Assembly: GCA_947632455.1 (NCBI GenBank)
Contig: CANRPK010000003.1
Span: 2,476-66,475, forward strand
Reading direction: 5' to 3'
Source: an uncultured Bacilli bacterium
Lineage (GTDB): Bacteria; Bacillota_I; Bacilli_A; RF39; UBA660
Length of the DNA stretch: 64,000 nucleotides
Below are positions 20,088 to 53,572 of the stretch, one piece after another. The translations under genes and the position numbers were made by a program. Numbering within the stretch: the stretch's first letter is position 1; the number at the start of each line of letters is the position of its first letter. The notes under the pieces are model-generated. The model had not been told where the DNA came from. It searched no databases and saw nothing but the letters and a program-made list of their open reading frames with translations.

Positions 20088-20129
20088 AATATATTTTAAT
20101 GTCCGAAAAGTTCGAACAGATTCGTCACT

Positions 20130-20204
20130 GGAGCAAGTGAGCGGAATCGAACCGCCGTCTCAACCTTGGCAAGGTCGCATACTAACCGCTGTACTACACC
20201 TGCG
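20130..20204 (-). tRNA. tRNA-Gly (GCC)
   Basis: The reverse complement GCAGGTGTAGTACAGCGGTTAGTATGCGACCTTGCCAAGGTTGAGACGGCGGTTCGATTCCGCTCACTTGCTCCA folds as a cloverleaf. Anticodon loop TTGCCAA, encoded CCA. Confidence 0.9.
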
Positions 20205-28837: not shown

Positions 28838-28851
28838 CGAACCTTTTTTTT
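28814..28851 (+). terminator. Terminator at the end of cdaR
   Basis: AAGGTTCGT ... ACGAACCTT followed by a T8 run. The stem spans the cdaR stop codon. Confidence 0.6.
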
Positions 28852-29050
28852 ATTCACATATAGTAATTAATTCTCCAACAGAACAATCTAAATATTTGCA
28901 AAACTCTTCAATATATTTAAACGATATCGAAGTAGTATCACCTCTAATAATTCTATTAATATTTCTAGAAGTAATATTCATTCTTTGACATAACCAATAT
29001 TTAGTTTTACCTTTCTTTTTTAATAATTCTTCAATATTTATTTTAATCAT
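28850..29050 (-). CDS. XRE-family HTH regulator (66 aa), divergent from paralog copy 1
   Basis: KTKYWLCQRMNITSRNINRIIRGDTTSISFKYIEEFCKYLDCSVGELI is a Cro/C1-type HTH. Confidence 0.8.
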   Translation of the reverse strand: MIKINIEELLKKKGKTKYWLCQRMNITSRNINRIIRGDTTSISFKYIEEFCKYLDCSVGELITICE

Positions 29051-29182: not shown

Positions 29183-30667
29183 ATGAAAATAGAAAGGTTA
29201 GAAATAAGTAATAAAAAAGTAAAGATAGCATTTATAGTAGGAATAGTATTAACAGCAATATTATTTATAATGGTAAATTATTTAGTTACTAAAGCAAAGT
29301 ATCGAAATACAGAAAGCCTAGATTTAGTAAAAGGAACAATTACATATAATAAAGCAGATCTAAACATAATCGCGATGTATCAAGAAAGTAGCTATGGTAC
29401 AAATGGCTATAAACAAATAGATGATGTGCCAACAGAAAAATATACATTAAGTAATAAAAGTTATTGTGAAGTAGGCAGTCAAAAAGTAGAAGATGCTCAA
29501 ATTGAATATAGAGAAGGAGCAATATATGTAGGAAATATCAAAAAAAGAGGAACAAAATGTTATATATATTTTGATTTGGATTATAAGGCAGATGATATGT
29601 TAGCAAAATTAGAAACAATAAAACAAAGTAAATATGAAAAAACAGCAATGCCAAATCCAATCACAGGACCATACGATGCGGATGTAGAAAACCCGGAACA
29701 TAAAGAAAAAATATATACAACCGAAGATAACTACGGAACCAGTTATGTATTTAGAGGCAATAATGATGATGTAAATAACTGGGTAACATTTGCTAATCAT
29801 ACATGGAGGATAATCCGAATAAATGGAGATGGAACATTAAGGTTAATATTCCAATGTGCAGAGCCAAATTGTACAGATACAAAGGGACCAACAACCCAAA
29901 TAGGAAAAAGTGCATATAAATTAGCACCGCTTGATGATAATACCTATGTAGGATATTATTATGGCGAAGCGGGTCAAGACACATATGATAAAACTCATAC
30001 TAATGCTCATCCAAGCGATGTAGCAAAAGCTGTTGATAATTGGTATACCGGTACAGGAAATATGACTTCATATACTAAATATTTAAGTGGAGACACTGGA
30101 TTTTGTAATGATCGAGTAGTAGTTACTAAAGTTTGGAATGATTATGAAGGCAATGGAACAGGACAGTCTGCAACAGGATATGGTCCAGCAGCCAGATTAA
30201 TACTTAATGGCGGATGGAGAAAAAGTCAATACCCAACATTAAAGTGTGGGGTTAATATTGGTGGAGTAAATAAAGAAACATATGATAATTTTGATGTAGA
30301 TCCAACAGCATTAAAAAGAGATTTATTTACTACCAAGAACTCAGGCAGAGGTAACGAAATACTTACATATCCAGTAGGACTTATCACAAGTGATGAAGTT
30401 ACTATGGCTGGACTATTCGGAGGAACAGCATTTGCTGATTACTGGTTATATACAAATCAACATTATTGGACAATGTCTCCTAATTGGTATGATGTCAATA
30501 ATAAGGTGGCTGACGTGTTCCCTGTGCATGAGAATGGCAACTTTTACTACTGCGGCGTTGGTAGCGTTCATGGAGTGCGTCCAGTAATTAATCTTAATGC
30601 CGATATCGAATTTAGTGGAGGTACTGGTAAATCCGATAATCCATTTATCGTAAAAACAAGCAATTAA
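29183..30667 (+). CDS. Membrane-anchored paralog family protein, copy 1 (lectin-like C-terminal module)
   Basis: One N-terminal TM helix. Shares NWVTFANHTWRIIRINGDGTLRLIFQC, YVGYYYG, FCNDR, LKCG, LITSDEV, YWTMSP and GVRPVINLNADIEFSGG with 40641, 42526 and 50091. Confidence 0.85.
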   Translation: MKIERLEISNKKVKIAFIVGIVLTAILFIMVNYLVTKAKYRNTESLDLVKGTITYNKADLNIIAMYQESSYGTNGYKQIDDVPTEKYTLSNKSYCEVGSQKVEDAQIEYREGAIYVGNIKKRGTKCYIYFDLDYKADDMLAKLETIKQSKYEKTAMPNPITGPYDADVENPEHKEKIYTTEDNYGTSYVFRGNNDDVNNWVTFANHTWRIIRINGDGTLRLIFQCAEPNCTDTKGPTTQIGKSAYKLAPLDDNTYVGYYYGEAGQDTYDKTHTNAHPSDVAKAVDNWYTGTGNMTSYTKYLSGDTGFCNDRVVVTKVWNDYEGNGTGQSATGYGPAARLILNGGWRKSQYPTLKCGVNIGGVNKETYDNFDVDPTALKRDLFTTKNSGRGNEILTYPVGLITSDEVTMAGLFGGTAFADYWLYTNQHYWTMSPNWYDVNNKVADVFPVHENGNFYYCGVGSVHGVRPVINLNADIEFSGGTGKSDNPFIVKTSN

Positions 30668-40058: not shown

Positions 40059-40508
40059 TTAACTTATTCTCCCAAGTAAATAATCCGCGGATATATTATA
40101 TCTTTTACATATTTCATATAAAAAAGAAGTTGAAATAAGATATCTTCCTCTCTCATAATCTGCAATAACTGAATGAGTAGTATTTAAAATATCTGCTAAT
40201 CTCTCTTGAGTAAGCTTATTATCTTTTCTAAATTTTTTTAATCTTTCTCCCAGTAATTCTTTTTTATATTGTTTTTCACTTTTTTTAAATTGTTTATTAT
40301 CAGTAAAACTAAATATATAATCTAAAGAAACATTAAAGTAATCACATAAATTAATTAAATGTTTTAAAGGCATGATAGTATATTCTGTTTCATACTGATT
40401 ATATGTTCCTTTATATATTTCTAATAAATCTGCCACTTCATATTGTTTTAAGTTTTTACTTTCTCTTAGTTCAATTAATCTTTTGCTATACATTGTATTC
40501 ACCAACAT
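40059..40508 (-). CDS. XRE-family regulator with two HTH domains (149 aa), divergent from copy 2
   Basis: Two Cro/C1 HTH units: LKQYEVADLLEIYKGTYNQYE and LTQERLADILNTTHSVIADYERG. Confidence 0.8.
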   Translation of the reverse strand: MLVNTMYSKRLIELRESKNLKQYEVADLLEIYKGTYNQYETEYTIMPLKHLINLCDYFNVSLDYIFSFTDNKQFKKSEKQYKKELLGERLKKFRKDNKLTQERLADILNTTHSVIADYERGRYLISTSFLYEICKRYNISADYLLGRIS

Positions 40509-40640: not shown

Positions 40641-42110
40641 ATGAAGATAGAAAAAATAGGGGAAACAAATAAATATAAATGGATAATAATAGGCTTTATC
40701 ATTTGTGCCAGTTTATTTGTTATGATAAATTACCTAATAACCAAAGCAAAATACCGAAATACAGAAAGTGTAGATTTAGTAAAAGGAACAATTACCTATA
40801 ATAAAGCAGATCTAAACATAATAGCGATGTATCAAGAAAGCAGTTATGGTACAAATGGGTATAAACAAATAGATGATGTACCAACTGAAAAATATACATT
40901 AAGTAATAAAAGTTATTGTGAAGTAGAAGGACAAAAAGTAGAAGAAGCCCAAATAACATATGAAGAAGGGTATATAAGTGTAAGTAAAATAAATAAAAGA
41001 GGAACAAAATGCTATATCTATTTTGACTTAGATTATACATCAGAAGATATGTTAGCAAAGTTAGAAGAAACAAAACAAAGTACATATGAAAAAACAACAA
41101 TGCCAAATCCAATCACAGGACCATATGATGAGCAAAAAGAAAATCCAGAACATAAAGAGAAACTATATACAACCGAAGATAATTATGGAACCAGTTATGT
41201 ATTTAGAGGAAACAATGAAGATGTAAATAACTGGGTAACATTTGCTAACCATACATGGAGGATAATCCGAATAAATGGAGATGGAACATTAAGAATGATA
41301 TTCCAATGTGCAACTCCAGGATGTACAGATACAGAAGGGTCAATAACCACAATAGGTAATAGTGCATATAAATTAGCCCCATTTGATGATAATGCATATG
41401 TCGGATATTATTACGGCGAAGCAGGACAAGACACATATGATAAAACTCACACCAATGCTTATCCGAGTAAAGTATCAGAAACCATAAAAGAGTGGTATAA
41501 CAAAAATGACAATATGACTAATTATACTAAATATTTAAGTGGAGATACAGGATGGTGTAATGATCGAGTAGTGGTTCAAAATCTTTGGGAAAGTGCTAAA
41601 GGCGATGGATCCAATAAATCCACTACAATTTATGGTCCAGCAAATAGACAAAAATTAAATAATGTTTGGAGAAAAGAACAATATGCAAATTTAAAATGTG
41701 GAACAATTTATGCTAATGATTTAAGTACTTTTTCATATAATGAGAAAGTAATGGAAAGGGATTTATTTACAACAGAAGGATCAATTCAAGGAAATGGAAA
41801 ACTCCCGGTTCCAGCCGCGTTAATCACAAGTGATGAAGCCTTGATGGTTGGAGGCTTTGGAGGAACAGCAAGCACAAATCATTGGCTATACACCAACCAA
41901 AATTATTGGACAATGTCTCCTTTTTGGTACGATGGAAATATGAATTGGGCCGTAATGTTTGCTATAAAAAGTGATGGTAGTGTTTATCATGAAAAAATAG
42001 GAATAACCAATAATGGAGTTCGCCCCGTAATTAATTTAAATGCTGATATAGAATTTAGCGGAGGAGACGGAAAATCATCTAATCCATTTATCGTAAAAAC
42101 AAACATATAA
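40641..42110 (+). CDS. Membrane-anchored paralog family protein, copy 2
   Basis: Same architecture and conserved blocks as copy 1. The 5' ~185 nt are about 94% identical to copy 1. Confidence 0.85.
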   Translation: MKIEKIGETNKYKWIIIGFIICASLFVMINYLITKAKYRNTESVDLVKGTITYNKADLNIIAMYQESSYGTNGYKQIDDVPTEKYTLSNKSYCEVEGQKVEEAQITYEEGYISVSKINKRGTKCYIYFDLDYTSEDMLAKLEETKQSTYEKTTMPNPITGPYDEQKENPEHKEKLYTTEDNYGTSYVFRGNNEDVNNWVTFANHTWRIIRINGDGTLRMIFQCATPGCTDTEGSITTIGNSAYKLAPFDDNAYVGYYYGEAGQDTYDKTHTNAYPSKVSETIKEWYNKNDNMTNYTKYLSGDTGWCNDRVVVQNLWESAKGDGSNKSTTIYGPANRQKLNNVWRKEQYANLKCGTIYANDLSTFSYNEKVMERDLFTTEGSIQGNGKLPVPAALITSDEALMVGGFGGTASTNHWLYTNQNYWTMSPFWYDGNMNWAVMFAIKSDGSVYHEKIGITNNGVRPVINLNADIEFSGGDGKSSNPFIVKTNI

Positions 42111-42114
42111 AAAA

Positions 42115-42152
42115 TTTGACTATACTGCTTTCTTATTCCAAGTATAGTCAAA
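42115..42152 (+). other. Conserved post-stop hairpin, copy 2
   Basis: Stem TTTGACTATACT/AGTATAGTCAAA with the identical loop GCTTTCTTATTCCA. A separate terminator hairpin lies at 42156-42179. Confidence 0.7.
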
Positions 42153-42177
42153 AATAATAGGCTCAATAAGCCTATTT

Positions 42178-42387
42178 TTATTTACTAGTTTCTTTTATAA
42201 ATTTAATTATTTCCGTATCGGGAATTTTTAAAATCGTAAGTAATTTAGCAATAGTTTCAAATTTAGCATATCTATAATTACCATTTTCTATTCTAAATAA
42301 ATTTCTCCATGAAATATCACATAATTCAGCTAATTCTTCTAAAGTATAATTATTTTTAATTCTATACTCCTTTAACATACATATCAC
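42178..42387 (-). CDS. XRE-family HTH regulator (69 aa), divergent from copy 3
   Basis: YTLEELAELCDISWRNLFRIENG is a Cro/C1 HTH. Confidence 0.8.
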   Translation of the reverse strand: MICMLKEYRIKNNYTLEELAELCDISWRNLFRIENGNYRYAKFETIAKLLTILKIPDTEIIKFIKETSK

Positions 42388-42389
42388 CT

Positions 42390-42405
42390 ATGACAATTAT
42401 GTCAT
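42390..42405. promoter_or_regulatory. Palindrome ATGACA-ATTA-TGTCAT (candidate operator)
   Basis: Directly upstream of the XRE start codon. Related to 42448-42461. Confidence 0.45.
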
Positions 42406-42446
42406 TAAAAAGAATATAAAAGTATGACGCAAATGGCAATTTATAT

Positions 42447-42475
42447 ATTGACATAAATGTCATAAAATATTATAA
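42447..42475 (+). promoter_or_regulatory. Promoter of copy 3 with an overlapping palindrome TGACAT-AA-ATGTCA
   Basis: TTGACA, 17-nt spacer, TATAAT. The palindrome at 42448-42461 covers the -35 element. Confidence 0.6.
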
Positions 42476-42525
42476 TTTAAGCATAAGTTAGAATTATTTA
42501 ATATAATTGAGGAAAGGGAAAAAGA

Positions 42526-44034
42526 ATGAAAATAGAAAGGTTAGATATTGATAGTAAAAGAAATAAGACAATATTTGTAGTAGGATTTATATTAGCAATA
42601 ATATTAGTAATAGTAATAAACTATATAACCAGTCTAGCAAGATATAGGAATACAGAAAGTATAGAACTAGCAAGTGGTAATATAAACTACAATAAGGCAG
42701 ATTTGAATATAATCGCTATGTATCAAGAAAAAGATGATAGTACATCTGAAGAGAAAGAATATATAAATATAAATAAGATACCCACAATAGGATATAAATT
42801 AAGTGAAGATAGTTATTGTGAAATAAATGGAGAGCCAATAGAAGAAGTAGAGATAGAATATAAAAATAGTGCAATATATGTAGGAAATATAACAGAAAAA
42901 GGAACAAAATGTTATATATATTTTGATAGTTTAGTAAAAGAAATGTTAGGTAAATTAGAAACCTCAAAGGGAAGTAAATATACCATAGATGAAATGCCAA
43001 ATCCAATCACAGGACCATATGATGAAAGTACAGAAAATCCTGAAGGAGAAGAAAAATTATATACCAGTCCAGATAATTATGGAACCAGTTATGTCTTTAG
43101 AGGAAATAATGATGACGTAAATAACTGGGTAACTTTTGCTAATCATACATGGAGAATAATCAGAATAAATGGAGATGGAACATTAAGGTTAATATTCCAA
43201 TGTGCAACTGAAAATTGTACTGATGCAATCGGTGAAAATACCCAAATAGGAAAAAGTGCTTATAAATCTAAACCGTTTGATGATAATACCTATGTAGGAT
43301 ATTATTATGGAACAGCACACACAGATGAAAAACCAAGTCCAAGTTATGAAGAAGCACATTCAAACTCTACGATAGCTAAAGCAATAAATAATTGGTACAG
43401 TGGTACAGGAGCAATGACAGATTACACCAATTATTTAGAGGGAAGCACAGGATTTTGTAATGATCGAGTAGTAGTAAAAAATGTTTTGAATACGTTTGAA
43501 GGCGATGGTGCCGCACAAAGTTCAACAGGTTATGCACCAGCCGCCAGATTAATTTCAACTAGCGTACGGAGAACAAAACAATATCCAACATTAAAGTGTG
43601 GAGTTGTAATGCCAGAAATAAGCCCATCAAATGATGTAGGATTTAATAGTTTTGATGAGATAGATACTACCGCATTAAAAAGAGACTTATTCACAGTAGA
43701 AGGTTCAGATAGAGGAAATGCAAAGCTTCCAGTGCCAGTAGGGCTTATCACTAGTGATGAAGTAGCAATGGCTGGAGGCTTTGGAAGAACAGTCTCTACT
43801 GATTACTGGTTATATACAAATCAAGATTATTGGACAATGTCTCCACGAGACTATGATGCTTCGGTTAAGTGGGCTAATGTGTTCGCTGTTCGTGAAGATG
43901 GCACCCTCAACAGTTGGAGCATTAGAGATAGTCGTAGTGGAATGCGTCCAGTCATCAACTTAAAAGCTGATATTGAATTTAGTGGAGGAGCTGGAAAATC
44001 ATCTAATCCATTTATTGTAAATACAAGTAATTAA
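42526..44034 (+). CDS. Membrane-anchored paralog family protein, copy 3
   Basis: Same conserved blocks. Tandem to copy 2. Confidence 0.85.
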   Translation: MKIERLDIDSKRNKTIFVVGFILAIILVIVINYITSLARYRNTESIELASGNINYNKADLNIIAMYQEKDDSTSEEKEYININKIPTIGYKLSEDSYCEINGEPIEEVEIEYKNSAIYVGNITEKGTKCYIYFDSLVKEMLGKLETSKGSKYTIDEMPNPITGPYDESTENPEGEEKLYTSPDNYGTSYVFRGNNDDVNNWVTFANHTWRIIRINGDGTLRLIFQCATENCTDAIGENTQIGKSAYKSKPFDDNTYVGYYYGTAHTDEKPSPSYEEAHSNSTIAKAINNWYSGTGAMTDYTNYLEGSTGFCNDRVVVKNVLNTFEGDGAAQSSTGYAPAARLISTSVRRTKQYPTLKCGVVMPEISPSNDVGFNSFDEIDTTALKRDLFTVEGSDRGNAKLPVPVGLITSDEVAMAGGFGRTVSTDYWLYTNQDYWTMSPRDYDASVKWANVFAVREDGTLNSWSIRDSRSGMRPVINLKADIEFSGGAGKSSNPFIVNTSN

Positions 44035-44079: not shown

Positions 44080-44207
44080 TAATATCTAATAAATACTCAT
44101 ATTTAATTATCTAATATATTTATAAAAAGAATAAAATTTATCATTTTTTCTTGATTTTGAAATATATATATGATAGACTTATTAATAGAATAAAAGGTGG
44201 TGTAAGG

Positions 44208-45149
44208 ATGGACTTCCTTAATAAATTATATGAAAGCAATTACTTCGGCATAAGTTTATTTGCCGTTATATCCTTTTTAGTTGTAACATTTTTAGTAGTG
44301 TTATTCTTTGGTAAAAGAGATGAAAAGCAAACTAAATTAAATGAAGAAAATAAAACAAATAATATAGATAATAATGAAATAGATACATTTAAGGAAATAA
44401 ATGAACCAGTTCATTTAGAAACTCCAGTTGCACCTGTAGAAGAGCCTACAATTATACCAGTAGCTCCAGCACAAACAATTAGTGAACCTGTTGAGACACC
44501 AGTTACTCCGGTTGCTCCAGTCACACCAATTAATTATGAAATTCCTGAACCAACACCAATGCCAGTTGAAGAGGAAAAAGTACCAGAGCCAATATCTTTA
44601 GAAGAAATACCAACACCTATAATTAGTGAACCAGTAATAACTCCAATCGAGACAATCGAACCAACATCATTTGCTCCAGAGCAAACAATTAGTGAACCTG
44701 TTGAAGCTTTAGATGTACCACCAATAGAAGAAAAGGTTGAAGAGTTACCAACATTTGAACCAAATATTCCAAAAGTTATGGAACCAACCAAAATTGATTT
44801 AAATCCTGTACCAGAAGTACAAGATGAACCAATAAGTGAACCAAGACCAACAATTATAGAAGAACCTGAAATTGTTGCTCCATATTATAAACCAGTTGAA
44901 CCTACTAAAATACCTGAGGTGAAAATACCAAATATTGATTATGATACTCTAGCAAAATCAATATCTGATGAATTAGATGAATTAGAAAAGCAAACACCAA
45001 CGATTAATCCTACTAAACCAACTAATGACACATCTAATTTAAGATCATTTAGTTCAGTATATGTAGATACCCCAAATAGACCAGAACCAAAAGCTGAGCC
45101 TATTGACTTACCTAAAAAAATAGATTTACCAAAAAAAATTGATAGATAA
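44208..45149 (+). CDS. Membrane-anchored Pro/Glu/Val-rich repeat protein
   Basis: ATG 44208 follows AAGGTGGTG. One TM followed by PxxP-rich repeats (QTISEPVE twice; terminal IDLPKKIDLPKKID). Confidence 0.55.
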   Translation: MDFLNKLYESNYFGISLFAVISFLVVTFLVVLFFGKRDEKQTKLNEENKTNNIDNNEIDTFKEINEPVHLETPVAPVEEPTIIPVAPAQTISEPVETPVTPVAPVTPINYEIPEPTPMPVEEEKVPEPISLEEIPTPIISEPVITPIETIEPTSFAPEQTISEPVEALDVPPIEEKVEELPTFEPNIPKVMEPTKIDLNPVPEVQDEPISEPRPTIIEEPEIVAPYYKPVEPTKIPEVKIPNIDYDTLAKSISDELDELEKQTPTINPTKPTNDTSNLRSFSSVYVDTPNRPEPKAEPIDLPKKIDLPKKIDR

Positions 45150-45703: not shown

Positions 45704-47908
45704 TTGAAAAATAAAAGTTTTTTAAGAATGTTTATATTTCCTACAATAGTTATTGTAAGTTTATTAATAGTTCAAGCATTTTGTGATTTGGAATTACCCG
45801 AATATACTTCAAATATAATTAATAATGGTATTCAATCAAGTGGTATAACATCTAGTGTACCAGAAGTTATTCCCGAAAGTATTTATAATAATTTACATAA
45901 AATAAGTAATCATAATATTGGTTTAGAAGCTAGTTATGATTTAATTATAAAAGATCATTTAAATTCTCAAGACTTTAAAGAACTTTCTGAAAAATATCCA
46001 ATTTTAAAAGAAGAGAATATATATCTTTTAACTAAATTAAATTCTAAAGAAGAAGCTCAATTAGAAAAACAAATAATAAAACCATTAATTATTACAATGT
46101 TATTAGAAACTAATAATGAAGCTATTTTAAAATCATTAAATATATCTTTAAATAATGATGAAAAATTAATAGATATGCTAAACACTTTAGATCCTGAAAC
46201 TTATAATAATATTATCAGTAGTGCACTTTCATCTTTAGATAAAATTGATAATTCTATGTTATCTGAATATGGTCATTTAAGTGTTAAAGAAATATATGAG
46301 ATAACTGGTATTAACATGAATAAATATCAAATAAATTATATTATTCATGAAGGTTTAATCATGTTAGGAATTGCCGCTATAGGTATGCTAGTTGCTATTG
46401 GAGTAGGTTATTTAACTAGTAAGTTAGCCTCAAGAGTAAGTTATTTCTTAAGATATAAAGTTGTAAGTAAAATCTTAGCTTTTTCTTCTAAAGAATTTAA
46501 AGAATTTGGAGCATCAAGCTTAATTACTCGTGCCACTAATGATATTGAACAAATAAAAATGTTTACAATTATGCTTTTAAGAACTGTAGTATTTGCGCCA
46601 ATCATGGGAATAGGAGCTTTTATCAAAGTTTATGATAATCCCCTAAATTGGTTAATAGCTATTGCTATTATTGCTGTCTTAGTCTTAATTAGTATTTTAT
46701 TTAGCTTTGCAATGCCTAAGTTTAAAAGTATGCAAAAATTAATCGATAAAATGAATTTAGTTTCCCGTGAGATAGTGACAGGTATGCCTGTTATTAGAAC
46801 TTTTCATACAGAAGAATTTGAAGAGAAACGTTTTGATGAAGCCAATAATCAATTAACTAAAACAAATTTATTTATTAATCGTTTAATGAGTATTATGATG
46901 CCATCTATGATGTTAGTCATGAATATAATCAGTATTTTAATTGTTTGGTTTGGAGCTAAACAAATTGATTTAGGTACTTTACAAGTAGGAACTCTTTTAG
47001 CATTTATTACTTATACTATGCAAATAATAATGTCTTTCTTAATGATTTCTATGGTATCCGTTATGTTACCACGAGCTATTGTCTCAGTAAAAAGAATTAA
47101 AGAAATTCTAAAAAAAGAGATAACTATAAAAGAACCTACTAATCCTGAACCATTTAATGAAAAAGAAAAAGGTGTCATTGAATTTAAAGATGTAAGTTTC
47201 CAATATCCTGATGCTGATGAAGCTATGTTAAAAAATATTTCCTTTAAAGCAACCCCAGGAACAACTACTGCTTTTATAGGTTCTACTGGATCAGGTAAAT
47301 CAACATTAATTAATCTTATTCCTCGCTTTTTTGACGTAACAAAAGGATCTATCTTTGTCGATGGCGTAGATATAAGGAAAGCAAACCTTGAAGAATTGCG
47401 TAATAAAATTGGTTATGTTCCTCAAAAGGGTACATTATTTTCTGGAACTATTGAATCCAATTTAAAATTAGGTAATGATAATTTAAGTGCTAATCAAATG
47501 GAAGAATGTGCCAAAATAAGCCAATCTCTAGAATTTATAAATACTAAAGAGAAAAAATATCAAAGTCCAATTTCTCAAGGTGGAACTAATGTCAGTGGTG
47601 GTCAAAAACAAAGGCTATCCATTGCTCGTGCTATTGCTAAAAATCCTGAAATATATATATTTGATGATTCCTTTAGTGCTTTAGATTTTAAAACTGATGC
47701 TGCACTACGTTCAGCTCTCCAAGATGCAGCTAAGGATGCTACAATTTTAATTGTTGCGCAAAGAATAAGTACGATAATGAATGCTGATAATATAATTGTT
47801 TTAAATGAAGGAGAAATAATTGGGGCAGGTACTCATAAAGAATTATTAAAAAAATGCCCAATATATAAAGAAATTGCTCTTTCTCAATTAAAGGAGGAGG
47901 AACTATAA
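45704..47908 (+). CDS. ABC exporter permease/ATPase fusion (partner 1) with a ~190-aa extracytoplasmic insert after TM1
   Basis: Walker A GSTGSGKST, signature VSGGQKQRLSIARA, Walker B IYIFDDSFSALD. Confidence 0.9.
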   Translation: MKNKSFLRMFIFPTIVIVSLLIVQAFCDLELPEYTSNIINNGIQSSGITSSVPEVIPESIYNNLHKISNHNIGLEASYDLIIKDHLNSQDFKELSEKYPILKEENIYLLTKLNSKEEAQLEKQIIKPLIITMLLETNNEAILKSLNISLNNDEKLIDMLNTLDPETYNNIISSALSSLDKIDNSMLSEYGHLSVKEIYEITGINMNKYQINYIIHEGLIMLGIAAIGMLVAIGVGYLTSKLASRVSYFLRYKVVSKILAFSSKEFKEFGASSLITRATNDIEQIKMFTIMLLRTVVFAPIMGIGAFIKVYDNPLNWLIAIAIIAVLVLISILFSFAMPKFKSMQKLIDKMNLVSREIVTGMPVIRTFHTEEFEEKRFDEANNQLTKTNLFINRLMSIMMPSMMLVMNIISILIVWFGAKQIDLGTLQVGTLLAFITYTMQIIMSFLMISMVSVMLPRAIVSVKRIKEILKKEITIKEPTNPEPFNEKEKGVIEFKDVSFQYPDADEAMLKNISFKATPGTTTAFIGSTGSGKSTLINLIPRFFDVTKGSIFVDGVDIRKANLEELRNKIGYVPQKGTLFSGTIESNLKLGNDNLSANQMEECAKISQSLEFINTKEKKYQSPISQGGTNVSGGQKQRLSIARAIAKNPEIYIFDDSFSALDFKTDAALRSALQDAAKDATILIVAQRISTIMNADNIIVLNEGEIIGAGTHKELLKKCPIYKEIALSQLKEEEL

Positions 47909-49692
47909 TGCCAAGAATGCGTACAGTCGAAAAAGTAAAAGATTTCAAGGGAACTGTTAAAAGATTATATAAAAGAATATCTAAATATAAATTTTTAATT
48001 ATATTAGCTTTCCTTTTTGCTATTGGAAGTACAGTTTTTGCTATCATATCTCCAAAGATATTAGGAAATGCTACAACTGAGATTTATACTGGCCTAATTG
48101 CCAAAATAAATGGAGTAGGCACCATTAATTTCCAAAGAATTTCTCATATTTTAATTACTTTAGCCATCCTTTATATTATTAGTGCTTTATTTAGTTATAT
48201 TCAAAGTTTAATAATGACAAGTGTATCTCAAAAAGCTAGTTATGAATTACGAAAAGAAGTATCTGTAAAACTAAATAATTTACCTATGAAATATTATGAT
48301 AAACAATTAACAGGTGATATTTTATCTATAATTACTAATGATATAGATACATTACAAATAAGTTTAAATGGTTCACTAACCCAAATAGTTAGTGCTATAG
48401 TTACTATTATTGGAATATTTATTATGATGCTATCAATTAATGTATCTCTAGCTATTATAACGGCTTTAGTTTTACCATTTGCTTCTTTAATTGTTTTATT
48501 AATTGTTAGTAAAAGTCAAAAACATTTCGTAGCTCAACAAAAATATCTTGCTGAAGTAGATGCTGAAGTAGAAGAAATGATAAGTGGATATACAGTCATA
48601 AAAGCTTTTAATGCTGAAGAAAAAACTTTAAATAAATTTAATGAAGATAATTTAAAACTTCAAGATGCCGGTTTTAAATCTCAATTCTTATCTGGTCTAA
48701 TGCATCCAATTATGAATTTTGTAGGTAATTTAAATTATGCAATAATTGCTATAATTGGTTCATTGTATGCGATAAAAGGTAAAATAACTGTTGGTAATAT
48801 TCAAAGTTTTATTCAATATTCTCGTCAATTTACTAATCCTATTGCTCAATTAGCTCAAATTTCTAATCAAATTCAATCTATGCTAGCTGCTAGTGAAAGA
48901 GTATTTAACTTCTTAAGTGAAGAAGAACAAATAGATGAAGGTACTCTTAGTGCTAACAAAGTAGAGGGAAATATTGAATTTAAGAATGTTAAATTTGGAT
49001 ATAATCCTAATAAAATTATTATCAAAGATTTTAACGCTAAAGTAAAAAAAGGGGAAAAGATTGCCATTGTAGGTCCAACCAGTGCTGGAAAAACTACTAT
49101 TGTCAAATTATTAATGCGTTTTTATGAATTAAATAGTGGAGAAATCTTACTTGATGGTAAAAATATTACTGAATATAAACGTAGTGAATTAGAGAGTGTT
49201 TTCGCTATGGTTTTACAAGATACCTGGTTATTTAATGGTACTATCATGGATAACTTAAGATATGGAAACTTAAATGCCTCTGATAAAGAAGTAATAGCCG
49301 CGGCTAAAACAGCTAGTGCAGATTATTTTATTCATACTTTACCAGAAGGATATAATATGGTTTTAAATGAAGAAACAAGTAATATTAGTGGAGGTCAAAA
49401 ACAATTATTAACTATTGCAAGAGCAATATTAGCTAATCCCAAAGTTTTAATATTAGATGAAGCCACTTCAAACGTTGATACCAGAACTGAAGAATTAATT
49501 CAAAAAGCCATGGATAAAGTCATGGAAGGAAGAACTTCATTTATTATTGCCCATCGTTTATCTACCATTAAAAATGCTGATCTAATTTTAGTTATGAATG
49601 AAGGAGATATAGTAGAAGTAGGAAAACATGAAGAATTGTTAAAGAAAAATGGTTTCTATGCTACTATATATAATTCTCAATTTGAAAAATAA
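47908..49692 (+). CDS. ABC exporter permease/ATPase fusion (partner 2)
   Basis: ATAATG coupling. Walker A GPTSAGKTT, signature ISGGQKQLLTIARA, Walker B VLILDEATSNVD. Confidence 0.9.
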   Translation: MPRMRTVEKVKDFKGTVKRLYKRISKYKFLIILAFLFAIGSTVFAIISPKILGNATTEIYTGLIAKINGVGTINFQRISHILITLAILYIISALFSYIQSLIMTSVSQKASYELRKEVSVKLNNLPMKYYDKQLTGDILSIITNDIDTLQISLNGSLTQIVSAIVTIIGIFIMMLSINVSLAIITALVLPFASLIVLLIVSKSQKHFVAQQKYLAEVDAEVEEMISGYTVIKAFNAEEKTLNKFNEDNLKLQDAGFKSQFLSGLMHPIMNFVGNLNYAIIAIIGSLYAIKGKITVGNIQSFIQYSRQFTNPIAQLAQISNQIQSMLAASERVFNFLSEEEQIDEGTLSANKVEGNIEFKNVKFGYNPNKIIIKDFNAKVKKGEKIAIVGPTSAGKTTIVKLLMRFYELNSGEILLDGKNITEYKRSELESVFAMVLQDTWLFNGTIMDNLRYGNLNASDKEVIAAAKTASADYFIHTLPEGYNMVLNEETSNISGGQKQLLTIARAILANPKVLILDEATSNVDTRTEELIQKAMDKVMEGRTSFIIAHRLSTIKNADLILVMNEGDIVEVGKHEELLKKNGFYATIYNSQFEK

Positions 49693-49722
49693 AAAGTCGC
49701 TTTTAAAGCGACTAATTTTTTT
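49691..49722. terminator. Bidirectional terminator shared by the ABC operon and the convergent XRE gene
   Basis: AGTCGCTT-TTA-AAGCGACT flanked by an A-run and a T-run. Confidence 0.6.
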
Positions 49723-49957
49723 GTATTAATTTATCTAAACTTACATCTAAAGCAATAGAAATTCTATATAAAGTATCTACCGAAAAAGTATTAGCAACTT
49801 TTTCACTTTCAATTTGGCGAATAAAATCATGAGATAAATCTACTAATTCCGCCAGTTGAGCCGCCGTCATTCCTTTTTCTTTTCGATATTTTTTTATATT
49901 TTTTCGAATGGTTCCATAAATATCCGTATCAAATTGCAATTTCTTCAAACTAACCAC
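49712..49957 (-). CDS. XRE-family HTH regulator (81 aa), divergent from copy 4
   Basis: MTAAQLAELVDLSHDFIRQIESEK is a Cro/C1 HTH. Confidence 0.8.
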   Translation of the reverse strand: MVSLKKLQFDTDIYGTIRKNIKKYRKEKGMTAAQLAELVDLSHDFIRQIESEKVANTFSVDTLYRISIALDVSLDKLIQKN

Positions 49958-50090: not shown

Positions 50091-52040
50091 ATGACAAAAA
50101 ATCGCATATTAATTGCAATAGTAAGTGTATTGCTTATTGGGGTAGGAATAAGTATGGCATATTTTGCCGCAAAGGTAAGTAGTACAGGTGGAGGAATAAG
50201 TACAGAAGTAACAACCGCTAAAATAGGCGATGTAACAATAGAGATGTATGGAAAATTAGATTTAGATGTTGAAGATATGTATCCAGGACATTCAGATGTA
50301 TCAAGATTAGATGTAAAAGCTACGGGAGATAATAGATTAGTCGCATATAATTTAGTGTGGGCAGGAACAAATAGCCTACAAACAAAAATAGAATATATAG
50401 TATATAGAGTAACAAATACTTTAGAAGTAAGTAGTGCTTGTGAAGTAAAAACAAAAATAATAGAAGAAGGACAAGCCGTATATGAAGAATGTAAAATAAA
50501 TAATATAGATAAATTAGGAAGTCCAGTAGGAAGTGGAACAATAGAGACTGGCGAAGAAATATTAGTAGAGGATGAATTTATAAATGCTAGTCCAACCGGA
50601 GAAGAAATCCATTATTATGTGGTATTAACATATCCAAATAAAGAAGAAGATCAAGATTATGATAGAACAGGGGAATTTAGTGGCGAGATAAAAATAACCA
50701 ATAGTGATGCTAAACCAGATATAACAATCTTAGCCGCATATGTAGAAGATGAAAAGACAGGTAAGTTTAATGAAGCAAAGAAGATACCTGAAGGAGAATA
50801 TAAACTAAATAATAGAAGTACATGTACAAATGGAGCAACCCCAATATGGGATACAAATAATAAAGGATTATTAGTTGCAAATTTAACAGAAACAGGAACT
50901 AGTTGTGTTTTATATTTTGAAAAGAAATATGCATCAGATGATATGTTAGCAAAACTAGAGGCAGCAAGACAAGCAAAATTCAATATCGAAAAGATGCCAA
51001 ATCCCCTCACCGGACCATATAGTGGCGATGCTAGTTCTGATCAACCAATAGCGAATGATAAATTATATACAAGTCCAGATAATTATGGAAGAAGTTATGT
51101 ATTTAGAGGAAACAATTATGATGTTCACAACTGGGTAACATTCGCAGGACATACATGGAGAATAATCAGAATAAATGGAGATGGCACATTAAGATTAATA
51201 TATCAATGTGCTACCCCAGGATGTACAACAACTGAAGGAGAAGGAACTCACATAGGAACAAGTATATATAAGTCAGAAGCAATAGATGATAATACCTATG
51301 TAGGATATTATTATGGAGAACCAGGACAAGAAACATATGATGCCACTCATACAAATGCTCATCAAAGTACTATAGCTAAATATATTTCAGATTGGTATAG
51401 TGGAACAGGAGCAATGACAAATTATACTAAATATTTAAGTGGAGATACAGGATGGTGTAATGACCGAACAGCAGTTAAAAATTTTTTGAATGGATATGAA
51501 GGTGATGGTACGGGTAAAACTTTAACAGGATATGCGCTATCAACAAGACTAATTGCAAAAGGCGGAGCCTGGAGATTAAAACAATATCCGACCTTAAAAT
51601 GTGGAGCGGTAATGCCAGAAGAAAATCCAACAGAAGAAGAAGGAGCAAAATATTTTAGCAATTTTGAAGTAGACAATACTGCTTTAAAAAGAGATTTATA
51701 TACAACAATAGGTTCTAGTAATGGAAATAAAGTATTAGATGTTCCAGCAGCCTTAGTTACAACTGATGAAGTAGCTATGGCAGGAGGCTTTGGAGGTACA
51801 GCTTCTACAAATTATTGGCTATATACAAATCAATATTATTGGGCAATGTCTTCTTGGGGTTATTTTTCAGAAGGCTTTGCTCGTGCGTGGGTTACACAGG
51901 AGGGTGGTGCCTTATGGGGTGCCTGGGAAGTACGTCGTAGTTACGGTGTCCGCCCAGTAATAAATTTAAATGCTGATGTAACATTTAGTGGAGGAACAGG
52001 TACATCAAGTAATCCATTTGTAGTAAATACAAGTAATTAA
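50091..52040 (+). CDS. Paralog family protein, copy 4, with an extra TasA/camelysin-like N-terminal domain
   Basis: N-terminus ILIAIVSVLLIGVGISMAYFAAKVSS and MYPGHSDVSRLDVKATG (TasA-like), followed by the shared core from DDMLAKLEAARQ to GVRPVINLNADVTFSGG. Confidence 0.85.
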   Translation: MTKNRILIAIVSVLLIGVGISMAYFAAKVSSTGGGISTEVTTAKIGDVTIEMYGKLDLDVEDMYPGHSDVSRLDVKATGDNRLVAYNLVWAGTNSLQTKIEYIVYRVTNTLEVSSACEVKTKIIEEGQAVYEECKINNIDKLGSPVGSGTIETGEEILVEDEFINASPTGEEIHYYVVLTYPNKEEDQDYDRTGEFSGEIKITNSDAKPDITILAAYVEDEKTGKFNEAKKIPEGEYKLNNRSTCTNGATPIWDTNNKGLLVANLTETGTSCVLYFEKKYASDDMLAKLEAARQAKFNIEKMPNPLTGPYSGDASSDQPIANDKLYTSPDNYGRSYVFRGNNYDVHNWVTFAGHTWRIIRINGDGTLRLIYQCATPGCTTTEGEGTHIGTSIYKSEAIDDNTYVGYYYGEPGQETYDATHTNAHQSTIAKYISDWYSGTGAMTNYTKYLSGDTGWCNDRTAVKNFLNGYEGDGTGKTLTGYALSTRLIAKGGAWRLKQYPTLKCGAVMPEENPTEEEGAKYFSNFEVDNTALKRDLYTTIGSSNGNKVLDVPAALVTTDEVAMAGGFGGTASTNYWLYTNQYYWAMSSWGYFSEGFARAWVTQEGGALWGAWEVRRSYGVRPVINLNADVTFSGGTGTSSNPFVVNTSN

Positions 52041-52043
52041 ATA

Positions 52044-52076
52044 CATGCCTATAATGCTTATTCATTTATAGGCATG
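52044..52076 (+). other. Conserved post-stop hairpin, copy 4
   Basis: Stem CATGCCTATAA/TTATAGGCATG with the related loop TGCTTATTCAT. Confidence 0.6.
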
Positions 52077-52105
52077 AGGCCAACCCTTTACCGGCCTAAC
52101 ATATT

Positions 52106-52131
52106 AGAATGAAGATTTCTTCATTCTTTTT
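52106..52131 (+). terminator. Rho-independent terminator of copy 4
   Basis: AGAATGAAGA/TCTTCATTCT followed by TTTT. Confidence 0.6.
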
Positions 52132-52184
52132 AGTATTTAAAATTAAAATAATAAATGTTATAATAAATTAAGAGGTGTTAACTA

Positions 52185-52706: not shown

Positions 52707-53572
52707 TGACAATAATAAATGATTTTGAAGAATATAAAATTCTTGATATGGCTAATGGTCAAAAATTAGAGAAGTGGGGTAATTATATTTTATCAAGACC
52801 AGATCCTCAAATTATATGGCCAGAAAAAAGTACTAATCTTTGGGAAAATGCCCACGCTATATATGAAAGAAGTAAAACAGGAGGGGGAGCTTGGAATATA
52901 AAAAAGAAGCTACCTAATTCTTGGGTAATAAATTATCAAGATTTAAAGTTTAATTTAAAATTAATGGGCTTTAAACATACAGGCTTATTTCCAGAACAAG
53001 CTTATAATTGGAATTTAATTCGTCAAAAAATAAAGCAAGCTAATCGTCAAGTAAAAGTTTTAAATCTTTTTGCCTATACTGGAGCCGCCTCAATCGCTGC
53101 TTTAAAAGAAGGCGCACAAGTAGTTCATGTAGACTCCTCTCGGGGCATGATTGATTGGGCTAAAGAAAATGTTAAAATAAATAATTTAGAACAAGAAGAA
53201 ATTCATTTTTTAGTTGATGATGTTCGCAAATTTGTCAAAAGAGAAATAAGAAGGGGGAATAAATATGACATTATTATTATGGACCCACCATCATTTGGTC
53301 GAGGCAGTAAAAATGAAGTATGGAATATTGAAAATGATTTAGCCTCCCTTATATCTGATACATCATTATTATTGAGCGACAACCCTTTACTATTTATTGT
53401 CAATTCCTATACAACCGGCTTAAGCCAAATAGTTATTGAAAACTTATTAAATATTTACATAATGCCTAAATATCAAGGTAAAGTTATGAGTACTGAACTT
53501 GTTTTACCAATGGAAAATTCATCTTTAGTATTACCTTGTGGTTCAACAATTAGATGGGAAAATAATTTTTAG
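52706..53572 (+). CDS. Class I SAM-dependent methyltransferase (RlmI/YwbD-like catalytic domain)
   Basis: VLNLFAYTGAASIAA (SAM motif I) and IIIMDPPSFGRG (motif IV). Confidence 0.75.
   Translation: MTIINDFEEYKILDMANGQKLEKWGNYILSRPDPQIIWPEKSTNLWENAHAIYERSKTGGGAWNIKKKLPNSWVINYQDLKFNLKLMGFKHTGLFPEQAYNWNLIRQKIKQANRQVKVLNLFAYTGAASIAALKEGAQVVHVDSSRGMIDWAKENVKINNLEQEEIHFLVDDVRKFVKREIRRGNKYDIIIMDPPSFGRGSKNEVWNIENDLASLISDTSLLLSDNPLLFIVNSYTTGLSQIVIENLLNIYIMPKYQGKVMSTELVLPMENSSLVLPCGSTIRWENNF

Follow-up and report, generated by a model that had tools for sequence, protein, structure and literature searches.

Copy 4, one of four paralogous surface-protein genes in the window (the 64,000-nucleotide stretch of DNA from an uncultured Bacilli bacterium that was analysed here), carries close to its 3' end a short adenine-poor, G+C-rich patch, which is probably the variable region of a gene of the type targeted by diversity-generating retroelements (DGRs), now fossil or rarely rewritten. 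To our knowledge, DGRs are the only prokaryotic system for targeted hypermutation of proteins. Judged by homology, copy 4 belongs to a family of DGR targets, with its segment aligned to the variable region proven in relatives. The adenine-depletion footprint, which extends to synonymous sites and is not accompanied by depletion of T, equals that of proven variable regions. An earlier note on this DNA had read the patch as resembling a DGR variable region; this reading stood for the type of segment, by homology to proven targets and by composition, and found no support as regards ongoing diversification.

The four copies are dispersed, and each has its own HTH gene (Table 1). As claimed earlier, the segment between YW(T/A)MS(P/S) and G(V/M)RPVINL is of near-fixed length (30, 31, 31 and 30 codons in copies 1-4), and the block that follows it, GGNGTNCGNCCAGT, is found in 4/4 copies with 0-1 mismatch.

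Table 1. Features of the window that bear on the copy 4 segment (strand given as + or -)
Feature	Position	Strand	Description
Copy 1 gene	29183..30667	+	Variable-region-type segment 30482-30571; G+C 0.44; third codon position without A
Copy 2 gene	40641..42110	+	Equivalent segment 41922-42014; native composition, G+C 0.30, A 0.38
Copy 3 gene	42526..44034	+	Variable-region-type segment 43846-43938; G+C 0.47, third-position A 0.10
Copy 4 gene, 649 aa	50091..52040	+	ORF; N-terminal membrane helix, beta-sandwich domains, C-terminal divergent DUF6273-type domain of ~350 aa
Variable-region-type segment of copy 4	51855..51944	+	30 codons; A 0.16, G+C 0.53; positional homology to proven DGR variable regions
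Conserved G+C-rich 3' block GGTGTCCGCCCAGT	51945..51958	+	Codons for GVRPV
Small HTH (XRE-type) gene, divergent from copy 4	49712..49957	-	ORF; orthologs carry Pfam HTH_3
Equivalent HTH genes preceding copies 1, 2, 3	28850-29050, 40059-40508, 42178-42387	-, -, -	
ABC exporter gene pair upstream of copy 4	45704..49692	+	Synteny anchor with DGR-bearing locus L213
Spacer after copy 4, 144 nt	52041..52184		Site of template repeat, Avd and RT in L202 and L213-L215; none here

Base composition of the segments

The hand counts made earlier for positions 51855-51944 proved exact on recount, as did the coordinates: G+C is 0.533 (48/90) and A is 0.156 (14/90), in a window with a G+C content of 0.273. 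Outside the segment, the A content of copy 4 is 0.42; T is 0.31 in the segment versus 0.25 outside, and third-position T is 0.43 versus 0.35-0.37. In a sliding-window comparison, the patch ranks among the rarest 90-nt windows, those as rich in G+C and as poor in A making up 0.05% of all across the 64 kb. Other spots with G+C of at least 0.5 are confined to six tRNA genes, the C-terminal regions of copies 1-3 and the stretch 53070-53162; in copies 1 and 3 the spot coincides with the segment, in copy 2 with conserved sequence immediately upstream of it.

The codon-usage shift reported earlier holds at synonymous sites: of the codons for which an A ending is possible, 6/22 have one in the copy 4 segment versus 70% in the remaining gene (Fisher p = 7e-5). 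It is no peculiarity of copy 4, as the patch had been presented, because copies 1 (0/14 A-ending codons, p = 2e-7) and 3 (3/21, p = 1.5e-6) and most sister-strain paralogs show it, whereas copy 2 (9/16, not significant) does not; pooled over copies 1, 3 and 4, the synonymous A deficit reaches a Fisher p of 1e-15. Across 14 paralog segments of the species group, G+C ranges from 0.30 to 0.59. Since T in the copy 4 segment is not depleted, the shift concerns coding-strand A specifically, and since copy 2 uses native codons on the same scaffold, it is not required by the protein.

The edges of the copy 4 island are sharp and the region is recombinogenic, as would be expected had the patch come in from a relative with higher G+C or been produced, at a hotspot of recombination, by gene conversion biased towards G+C. 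Such an origin is nevertheless barely credible: A and T should then fall together, but T is raised in the segment, also at third positions; moreover, all recovered relatives, including those with proven cassettes, come from loci of 21-33% G+C, and no higher-G+C donor is seen among them.

Protein family and DGR cassettes in relatives

The paralogs belong to a large family of surface proteins of A+T-rich gut Firmicutes with a divergent DUF6273 domain and >1,400 database relatives; in GenBank phages, the family has no match by tblastn. The AF2 model of copy 4 has a pLDDT of 88.7 over its full length and of 93.8 for the C-terminal 349 aa. The latter has a single significant PDB match, to the T. 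ramosa IgA peptidase (9qa6; prob 0.97, E = 2e-4), whose N-terminal domain is annotated as DUF6273, and a DUF6273 phage protein in BFVD also matches it (prob 0.99, TMt 0.52); the query-normalised TM-score is low (0.31), so that the fold match covers only part of the domain. A fold search with the full-length model is dominated by the N-terminal beta-sandwiches and yields diphtheria-toxin-like matches with TM ~0.1. In a Pfam search, all four copies lack a match at E <= 1, including to DUF6273 (PF19789), and do not reach the gathering score; PF19789 is matched by 21/79 family members at E <= 0.01 (best 1e-5), and the target of locus L142 scores 20.0 bits against a cut-off of 23.5. A homolog search with the C-terminal 130 aa returned 17 short fragment ORFs of <=58% identity and no sibling variable regions, the parent protein itself being absent from the returns.

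Within the family, no part of the protein varies more than the segment, which has a column entropy of 2.2-2.5 bits versus ~1 elsewhere (54-member alignment). Over 86 family members, its mean A content is 0.23 versus 0.40 in the gene, and third-position A is 0.12 versus 0.42. The ~30 residues before GVRPVINL would be the diversified segment and probably form the ligand-binding surface.

In several relatives on human-gut metagenome contigs, the homologous segment is a proven variable region within a working cis cassette (loci L202/L194, L213-L215 and L212). At L202, the target gene (9254-10888) with its variable region (10722-10831) is followed by a template (11080-11189), bAvd (PF22296) and a reverse transcriptase (RT; PF00078), and 17/20 mismatches between template and variable region fall on template A. 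L194 combines the L202 template with a different variable region (21/24 mismatches at template A); L213, L214 and L215 have one common template and variable regions that differ between the three samples (20/21, 18/19 and 17/17); and at L212 the count is 16/16. The template-adenine share of mismatches across the proven loci is thus 85-100%. The L202 RT has 964 relatives, of which two that were examined (P0250, P0160), in other species, served as positive controls.

Copy 4 and the L202 target share 37% identity over 349 aa (E = 5e-50), the patch lying opposite the proven variable region; identity between copy 4 and the L213 target is 32.5% over 375 aa (E = 8e-42); copy 3 is 39% identical to the L142 target over the full length (E = 2e-94). 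The cis cassette loci thus share with the window a homologous target (32-37%), the position of the variable region, the 3' block (GTCCGCCCNGTA) and the base composition, proven variable regions having A of 0.12-0.16, G+C of 0.48-0.58 and T of 0.29-0.36. The bases equivalent to the 3' block of copy 4 form in these relatives the common 3' end of template and variable region: at L213 both end in GTCCGCCCGGTA, and the copy 4 equivalent is GTCCGCCCAGTA. L213 also resembles the window in having an ABC-transporter pair upstream of the target (order ABC-ABC-small ORF-target-TR-Avd-RT), the two genes sharing 50% and 56% identity with those that precede copy 4.

The likeness has limits. Third-position A in the copy 4 segment is 0.20, versus 0-0.04 in proven variable regions; five TGG and three other NNG codons of the patch are not derivable from AAY template codons; and several family-conserved scaffold residues (V, F, V, D) are replaced in it. 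Unlike the window, the cis cassette loci have template, bAvd and RT directly downstream of the target, and variation of their variable regions from sample to sample is restricted to template adenines and to codon positions 1-2 (differences over the three positions of 11/12/0 and 11/9/0 in the L213-L215 positive controls).

Stasis and recombination

Wherever alleles could be compared, the segment was static across strains, the outcome that the earlier note had named as speaking against its reading, and ongoing diversification is accordingly not supported. A second assembly (L001) has the identical copy 4 sequence, although the two records may represent one population. In 7/9 pairs of close alleles, the segment differs by 0-1 aa versus 1-20 elsewhere, and in a further close pair 2/44 differences lie inside the segment. 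Compared with its positional ortholog, copy 4 has an unrelated segment, differing at 57/90 bases (18/20/19 over the codon positions), inside a wider mosaic. None of these comparisons shows variation that is limited to the segment and, within it, to template-A sites and codon positions 1-2.

Between strains that share 99% identity in the flanking genes, the paralogs form recombination mosaics in their C-terminal halves, and in one 90% cluster entire C-terminal cassettes have been swapped. The earlier note had reasoned that the differences among the copies, not being confined to A positions, could not all derive from one template. This conclusion stands, on other grounds: the products of one template may differ from each other by any base pair at template-A sites, but the paralog segments differ in length (30 vs 31 codons), and the 57/90 differences between copy 4 and its positional ortholog are spread evenly over codon positions.

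The same mosaics and cassette swaps, together with the even spread over codon positions and the TGG and NNG codons incompatible with AAY templating, would fit an account in which no retroelement was ever involved: a surface loop rich in W, G, R and A residues would be under diversifying selection and shuffled by paralog recombination, and its composition would simply follow. We regard this as very unlikely. Synonymous sites are shifted, both in copy 4 and in the pooled copies; A alone is lost and T increases, and amino-acid selection does not predict such a strand asymmetry; in several relatives the homolog of the segment, equal to it in composition, is a proven DGR variable region; and native codons are tolerated on this scaffold, as seen in copy 2.

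Search for a template, Avd and reverse transcriptase

The claim of the earlier note that the window lacks RT, Avd and template was borne out by ORF, phmmer/tblastn and template scans. The window contains no ORF with a YxDD motif, RVT_1 is absent among the called genes, and the RT and Avd of L202, L211 and L213, used as phmmer/tblastn queries, have no match in either the window or ~90 kb of sister-strain loci. Full-length and 42-nt scans of both strands, as well as blastn, detected no template-compatible sequence in the window, in L002, in L125 or in the other sister loci, nor does the spacer downstream of copy 4 hold any such sequence or, by tblastn, remnants of Avd or RT. In a scan of the genome collection with a recoded form of the copy 4 segment (G->R, C->M, T->W, A->A), the matches listed comprised only poly-A/T runs. 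Copy 2 was considered as a template for the other copies and ruled out, as it is not among the best compatible sites. In total, no template for these segments was found within the ~155 kb of the species group covered; the descent of the copy 4 segment from a template, its writing by a DGR and the time at which this would have happened are therefore what we infer.

It is possible, but in our view unlikely, that copy 4, and perhaps other paralogs, is a remote trans target of a DGR still active elsewhere in the genome, which may use stand-alone template-plus-spacer RNA genes. Remote targets >100 kb from the RT are documented (PMC5758913), the sequence examined from the species group amounts to the same ~155 kb, and most of the A-depleted family segments in the metagenome loci have no RT within 10 kb. 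Furthermore, a homolog of a stand-alone template-plus-spacer RNA gene is present in a sister strain (L125:11796-12037; covariance model 108 bits, E = 5e-18), the spacer structure of which is preserved via compensatory changes. Its template-like stretch, however, is only 21% A and fits 0/14 segments with A-only mismatches (35-48% of mismatches at A), and the window contains no template-spacer RNA gene (covariance model, best E = 0.71). Close alleles with differences elsewhere have identical segments, whereas cis targets vary from sample to sample; the paralog segments are of different lengths and too divergent for a single template.

The stand-alone elements have no match in Rfam, and a spacer 18-mer gave five chance matches in IMG/VR, 0 of which fit the covariance model. 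As direct templates of variable regions at the same locus, those of L142, L152, L135, L162, L178 and L125 were rejected, with ~40-65% of mismatches at A plus indels. In L142 and L152, template-spacer copies alternate with genes for YhcG/DUF1016 nucleases; beside other copies these genes are absent, and they were therefore not treated as part of the system. A more far-reaching model, which we judge quite unlikely, would have this clade of gut Firmicutes run a distributed DGR: self-standing RNA genes, each with a promoter, a ~115-nt template repeat, a ~140-nt conserved structured spacer and a terminator, would lie far from any RT, sometimes in arrays, and would supply different templates to >10 dispersed, HTH-paired surface-protein paralogs, with copy 4 as a rarely rewritten trans target.

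Proposed origin of the copy 4 segment

If the segment is a fossil or rarely rewritten variable region, as we think probable, it could have arisen by the mechanism at work in this family. There, an AAY-rich template repeat is copied by an RT with bAvd, with misincorporation opposite template adenines, and the segment is then overwritten by the cDNA. Coding-strand A is thereby lost at all three codon positions to G, C or T, and T and the non-A scaffold bases are retained; in a genome of 27% G+C, this replacement results in an A-poor island of ~50% G+C. Copy 4 would have received its segment sequence by such rewriting and would now stand without an adjacent cassette and without detectable rewriting, either because the cassette beside it was lost or because the gene, or its 3' half alone, stems from duplication or recombination of a diversified copy. 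Slight drift since the rewriting would explain the 20% A at third positions, and recombination between paralogs reshuffles the C-terminal halves.

Relation to known systems and significance

DGR variable regions at the C-terminus of DUF6273 domains have been described (PMC11792537, PMC10743442). The DUF6273 targets of gut Firmicutes phages and prophages (Faecalibacterium phages Lelie, Roos and Pioen; 'tentaclins') belong to the same domain superfamily as the copy 4 family and have in common with it a variable region at the C-terminal end of the domain, directly before a conserved (G)VRP motif, and adenine-directed diversification (PMC11792537, PMC10743442). The phage targets are tail genes, whereas the window copies are chromosomal, beside housekeeping loci, with many dispersed paralogs that each have an HTH gene; the copy 4 domain is also expanded to ~350 aa and falls below the Pfam threshold, and the window copies lack an adjacent cassette.

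Another relevant system is that of Treponema denticola TvpA, the domain of which is of the FGE-sulfatase type. Its DGR is a precedent for one element serving several non-adjacent chromosomal surface-protein paralogs in trans (PMC5758913); there, each remote variable region matches a single template except at adenines, whereas the segments of the window do not derive from one template, and none was found. The Bacteroides DGRs that act on the tip adhesins of type V pili resemble the present case in involving a gut commensal and a cell-surface, probably adhesive protein, and differ from copy 4 in phylum, target fold and pilus system (bioRxiv 10.1101/2024.11.15.621889).

The known DGR target families are thus joined by a large chromosomal surface-protein family of A+T-rich gut Firmicutes with many paralogs per genome. 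In a low-G+C genome, a short island at a gene's 3' end, poor in A and rich in G+C, can mark a variable region even without a retroelement. If functional, the stand-alone template-spacer RNA genes would widen the DGR architecture known so far. Targets adjacent to a cassette vary between human samples, whereas dispersed paralogs keep frozen variable regions, a contrast that suggests a route by which products of hypermutation may be fixed as a multigene repertoire.

Composition of the segment in the four paralogs

In all four paralogous surface-protein genes (copies 1–4), a segment of 30–31 codons lies between YW(T/A)MS(P/S) and G(V/M)RPVINL and is directly followed by the block GGNGTNCGNCCAGT, with 0–1 mismatch. 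The copy 4 segment contains 14/90 A and 48/90 G+C in a window of 27.3% G+C, and just 0.05% of the 90-nt windows of the whole 64 kb are as adenine-poor and G+C-rich. Nearly all windows with G+C ≥ 0.5 correspond to six tRNA genes and the C-terminal regions of the paralogs; the spots remaining besides this patch are the tRNA genes, the C-terminal regions of copies 1–3 and a stretch at 53070–53162. The base counts and the invariant G+C-rich block of the earlier note were reproduced; the patch, described there as a feature of copy 4, is real in that gene but not unique to it, copies 1 and 3 having it too.

The shift extends to synonymous sites, which the earlier note had singled out as a check: where an A-ending synonym is possible, A-ending codons make up 6/22 in the copy 4 segment versus 70% in the remainder of the gene (p = 7e-5), 0/14 in the copy 1 segment and 3/21 in that of copy 3. 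T is not depleted in copy 4 (0.31 versus 0.25). Owing to the counts, the synonymous shift and the undepleted T, the patch is real, non-random and strand-asymmetric, with loss of A from the coding strand; amino-acid content alone fails to account for the composition. Among 14 paralogs of the species group, segment G+C ranges from 0.30 to 0.59, and third-position A is 0–0.29 in the segment versus 0.44–0.49 elsewhere. The copy 2 segment is unshifted, its A-ending synonymous codons (9/16) matching its background; either rewriting never reached it or its composition has returned fully to equilibrium, and it shows that the scaffold can do without G+C-rich codons.

Coordinates of the paralogs, DGR components and associated features
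Feature	Locus	Position	Strand	Remark
Copy 1 gene	window	29183–30667		
Copy 2 gene	window	40641–42110		
Copy 2 equivalent segment	window	41922–42014		native composition: G+C 0.30, A 0.38
Copy 3 gene	window	42526–44034		
Copy 4 gene	window	50091–52040		
Copy 4 segment	window	51855–51944		
HTH gene, copy 1	window	28850–29050	minus	
HTH gene, copy 2	window	40059–40508	minus	
HTH gene, copy 3	window	42178–42387	minus	
HTH gene, copy 4	window	49712–49957	minus	
Five-tRNA cluster	window	57518–57952		Val, Thr, Tyr, Gln, Lys
tRNA-Gly	window	20129–20203		single
DGR target gene	L202	9254–10888		
Variable region	L202	10722–10831		17/20 mismatches at template A
Template	L202	11080–11189		
Diversified region	L213	9001–9107		
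Diversified region	L214	6653–6759		
Diversified region	L215	9001–9107		
Template-spacer unit	L125	11796–12037		
Template-spacer units	L142	6640–6888, 7985–8230		
Template-spacer units	L152	5825–6074, 6910–7163, 8255–8509		
Template-spacer unit	L135	9540–9793		
Template-spacer unit	L162	5545–5809		
Template-spacer unit	L178	4708–4960	minus	
DUF1016/YhcG PDDEXK-nuclease gene	L142	7020–7946		alternates with template-spacer copies
DUF1016/YhcG PDDEXK-nuclease genes	L152	6114–6857, 7301–8224		alternate with template-spacer copies

Relatives with diversity-generating retroelements

Scanning of metagenome contigs for relatives of the family yielded 79 loci (L-numbers), many labelled human gut, in which canonical cassettes of diversity-generating retroelements (DGRs) were detected by self-comparison for repeats with mismatches at the adenines of one copy. 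In L202, the template is followed by an Avd gene (PF22296, 1.8e-5) and a reverse transcriptase (RT) gene (PF00078, 1.3e-14). L194 has the same template and a different variable region, with 21/24 mismatches at template A; in L212 the count is 16/16. Three loci reached via the RT, L213, L214 and L215, represent one species (27–28% G+C) in three human-gut samples and have an identical template, at whose adenines 20/21, 18/19 and 17/17 of the variable-region mismatches fall. Between sibling regions, differences are confined to codon positions 1 and 2 (11/12/0 and 11/9/0 by position); here the protein family is clearly seen to undergo DGR diversification in nature.

In every cassette, the stretch flanked by YW.M.P and G.R(P/S)V, homologous to the copy 4 segment, constitutes the variable region; over 349 aa, copy 4 and the L202 target share 37% identity (E = 5e-50). 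Base fractions in proven variable regions are A 0.12–0.16, G+C 0.48–0.58 and T 0.29–0.36, and their templates have A 0.29–0.36; the copy 4 patch (A 0.16, G+C 0.53, T 0.31) is compositionally indistinguishable from a proven variable region. The likeness suspected in the earlier note is supported by both homology and composition.

The gene order in L213–L215 is ABC exporter, ABC exporter, small ORF, target, template, Avd, RT. Their ABC proteins share 50% and 56% identity with the window pair at 45704–49692, which is followed by an HTH gene and then copy 4; copy 4 thus sits in the place of the cis target, the gene adjoining its own cassette. One base separates its 3' block GTCCGCCCAGTA from GTCCGCCCGGTA, the 3' end that template and variable region have in common in L213. 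Downstream of copy 4, just 144 nt precede an unrelated membrane-protein gene. An ORF of 332 aa (44151–45149), located after copy 3 and before the ABC genes, encodes a membrane helix as well as an extended Pro/Glu/Val-rich low-complexity region of repeated PV/EP motifs; this ORF is kept in the sister strain (L002:4132–5058).

Machinery and stability of the segment

No template-compatible sequence for any segment was found in the window, L002, L125, L207, L209, L210 or L221, no RT or Avd gene, intact or decayed, in the window or the sister-strain loci; RVT_1 is likewise missing from the called genes. The earlier statement that the window holds no RT, Avd or template stands. A segment static across strains, combined with a genome lacking RT and template, had been named in the earlier note as evidence against a DGR; the segment is static wherever close alleles exist. 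The copy 4 sequence is identical in a second assembly, and within nine clusters at 90% identity the segment shows 0–1 amino-acid difference in seven pairs, versus 1–20 elsewhere. Differences in these clusters concentrate in residues ~50–200. Among the members listed for a 24-member cluster from a more distant relative, 13/15 have one segment in common, and two have a swapped C-terminal cassette reaching beyond the segment. That copy 4 is the target of an active remote DGR is unlikely, given the missing cassette and the static segment; this verdict is based on ~155 kb of the species group and on allele comparisons.

In L002, the syntenic sister-strain locus, flanking genes are 99% identical to the window, whereas its three paralogs reach just 75–87% identity with the window copies: comparison of window 40641–44034 and 50091–52040 with L002:529–3959 and 10001–11941 revealed near-identical N-terminal parts and mosaic C-terminal halves. 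The segment of the positional ortholog of copy 2 (L002:529–2022) resembles that of copy 1. These patterns indicate that gene conversion between the paralogs is frequent. The segments of copy 4 and its positional ortholog are mismatched at 57/90 bases, evenly across codon positions, too many for two products of one ~30%-A template; this suggests that paralogs or alleles have recombined.

Stand-alone template-spacer units

Template-like repeats without an RT within 10 kb occur in L142 (2 copies), L152 (3), L135, L158, L162, L178, L181 and L125, the last belonging to the sister strain of the window organism. The aligned units, arranged in arrays at some loci, share a TATAAT box, a ~115-nt template rich in AAC/AAT codons, a ~140-nt conserved spacer and a T-rich end. 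The spacer is predicted to fold with 30 pairs, 10/30 of them with compensatory changes; a covariance model of the spacer recovers all copies at E ≤ 5e-18 and has no match in the window (best E = 0.71) or the cis cassettes, and the units have none in Rfam. No stand-alone template has an A-only fit to the variable region of its own locus (~40–65% of mismatches at A, plus indels), and the L125 copy has just 21% A. The units are putative trans templates or relics. DUF1016/YhcG nuclease genes accompany them in two or three genomes; since these genes are absent beside other copies, they possibly form a module that hitch-hikes or duplicates.

Origin of the copy 4 segment

Past writing by adenine-directed mutagenic retrohoming is the best explanation for the segment, because A alone is lost from the coding strand, synonymous sites included, and because of homology, composition and cis-target position. 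Some features of copy 4 speak against a clean DGR origin: (i) five TGG and three other NNG codons; (ii) a third-position A of 0.20 versus 0–0.04 in proven variable regions; and (iii) replacement of several scaffold residues. These anomalies could stem from drift after freezing, from an unusual template design or from a non-DGR history. The unusual scaffold codons GCT nnn GTG TTC nnT GTG ... GGC of the L142 template-like element recur in copies 1 and 3 and in several sister-strain segments, which ties these copies and segments more directly to a template lineage. A frozen or orphan state is likelier than current activity in trans, as the cassette is missing and the segment static; that the segment was written by a DGR in the past and is now frozen or orphan is, on the whole, the probable reading.

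Gene family and regulation

The four window proteins match neither Pfam nor NCBIfam entries; the family has at least 1,486 relatives at E ≤ 1e-3, and 21/79 aligned members match PF19789 (DUF6273) at E ≤ 0.01. An AF2 model of the C-terminal 349 residues of copy 4 (pLDDT 93.8) has a sole significant PDB match, the Thomasclavelia ramosa IgA peptidase 9qa6 (prob 0.97), whose N-terminal domain is annotated DUF6273 (PMC12402451); a phage DUF6273 protein is matched in BFVD (prob 0.99), and C-type lectins appear among weak structure matches only. In gut phages, DGR variable regions have been described at the DUF6273 domain C-terminus (PMC11792537, PMC10743442). In a 54-member alignment, the segment far exceeds the rest of the protein in variability (column entropy 2.2–2.5 bits versus ~1); it is traversed by the conserved scaffold xxYDxxxxWAxVFxVxxDGxL....GVRPV.

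Genes for sporulation (SpoVS, SpoVG, SpoIID and Spo0A), located on the contigs that carry the paralogs, place the organism among spore-forming Firmicutes. The paralogs are scattered and adjoin housekeeping genes (S10 operon, aminoacyl-tRNA synthetases, glycolysis genes), and upstream of every paralog, as in all sister-strain and L142/L152 loci, lies a small, divergently transcribed XRE-type HTH gene, which suggests copy-specific regulation of the repertoire.
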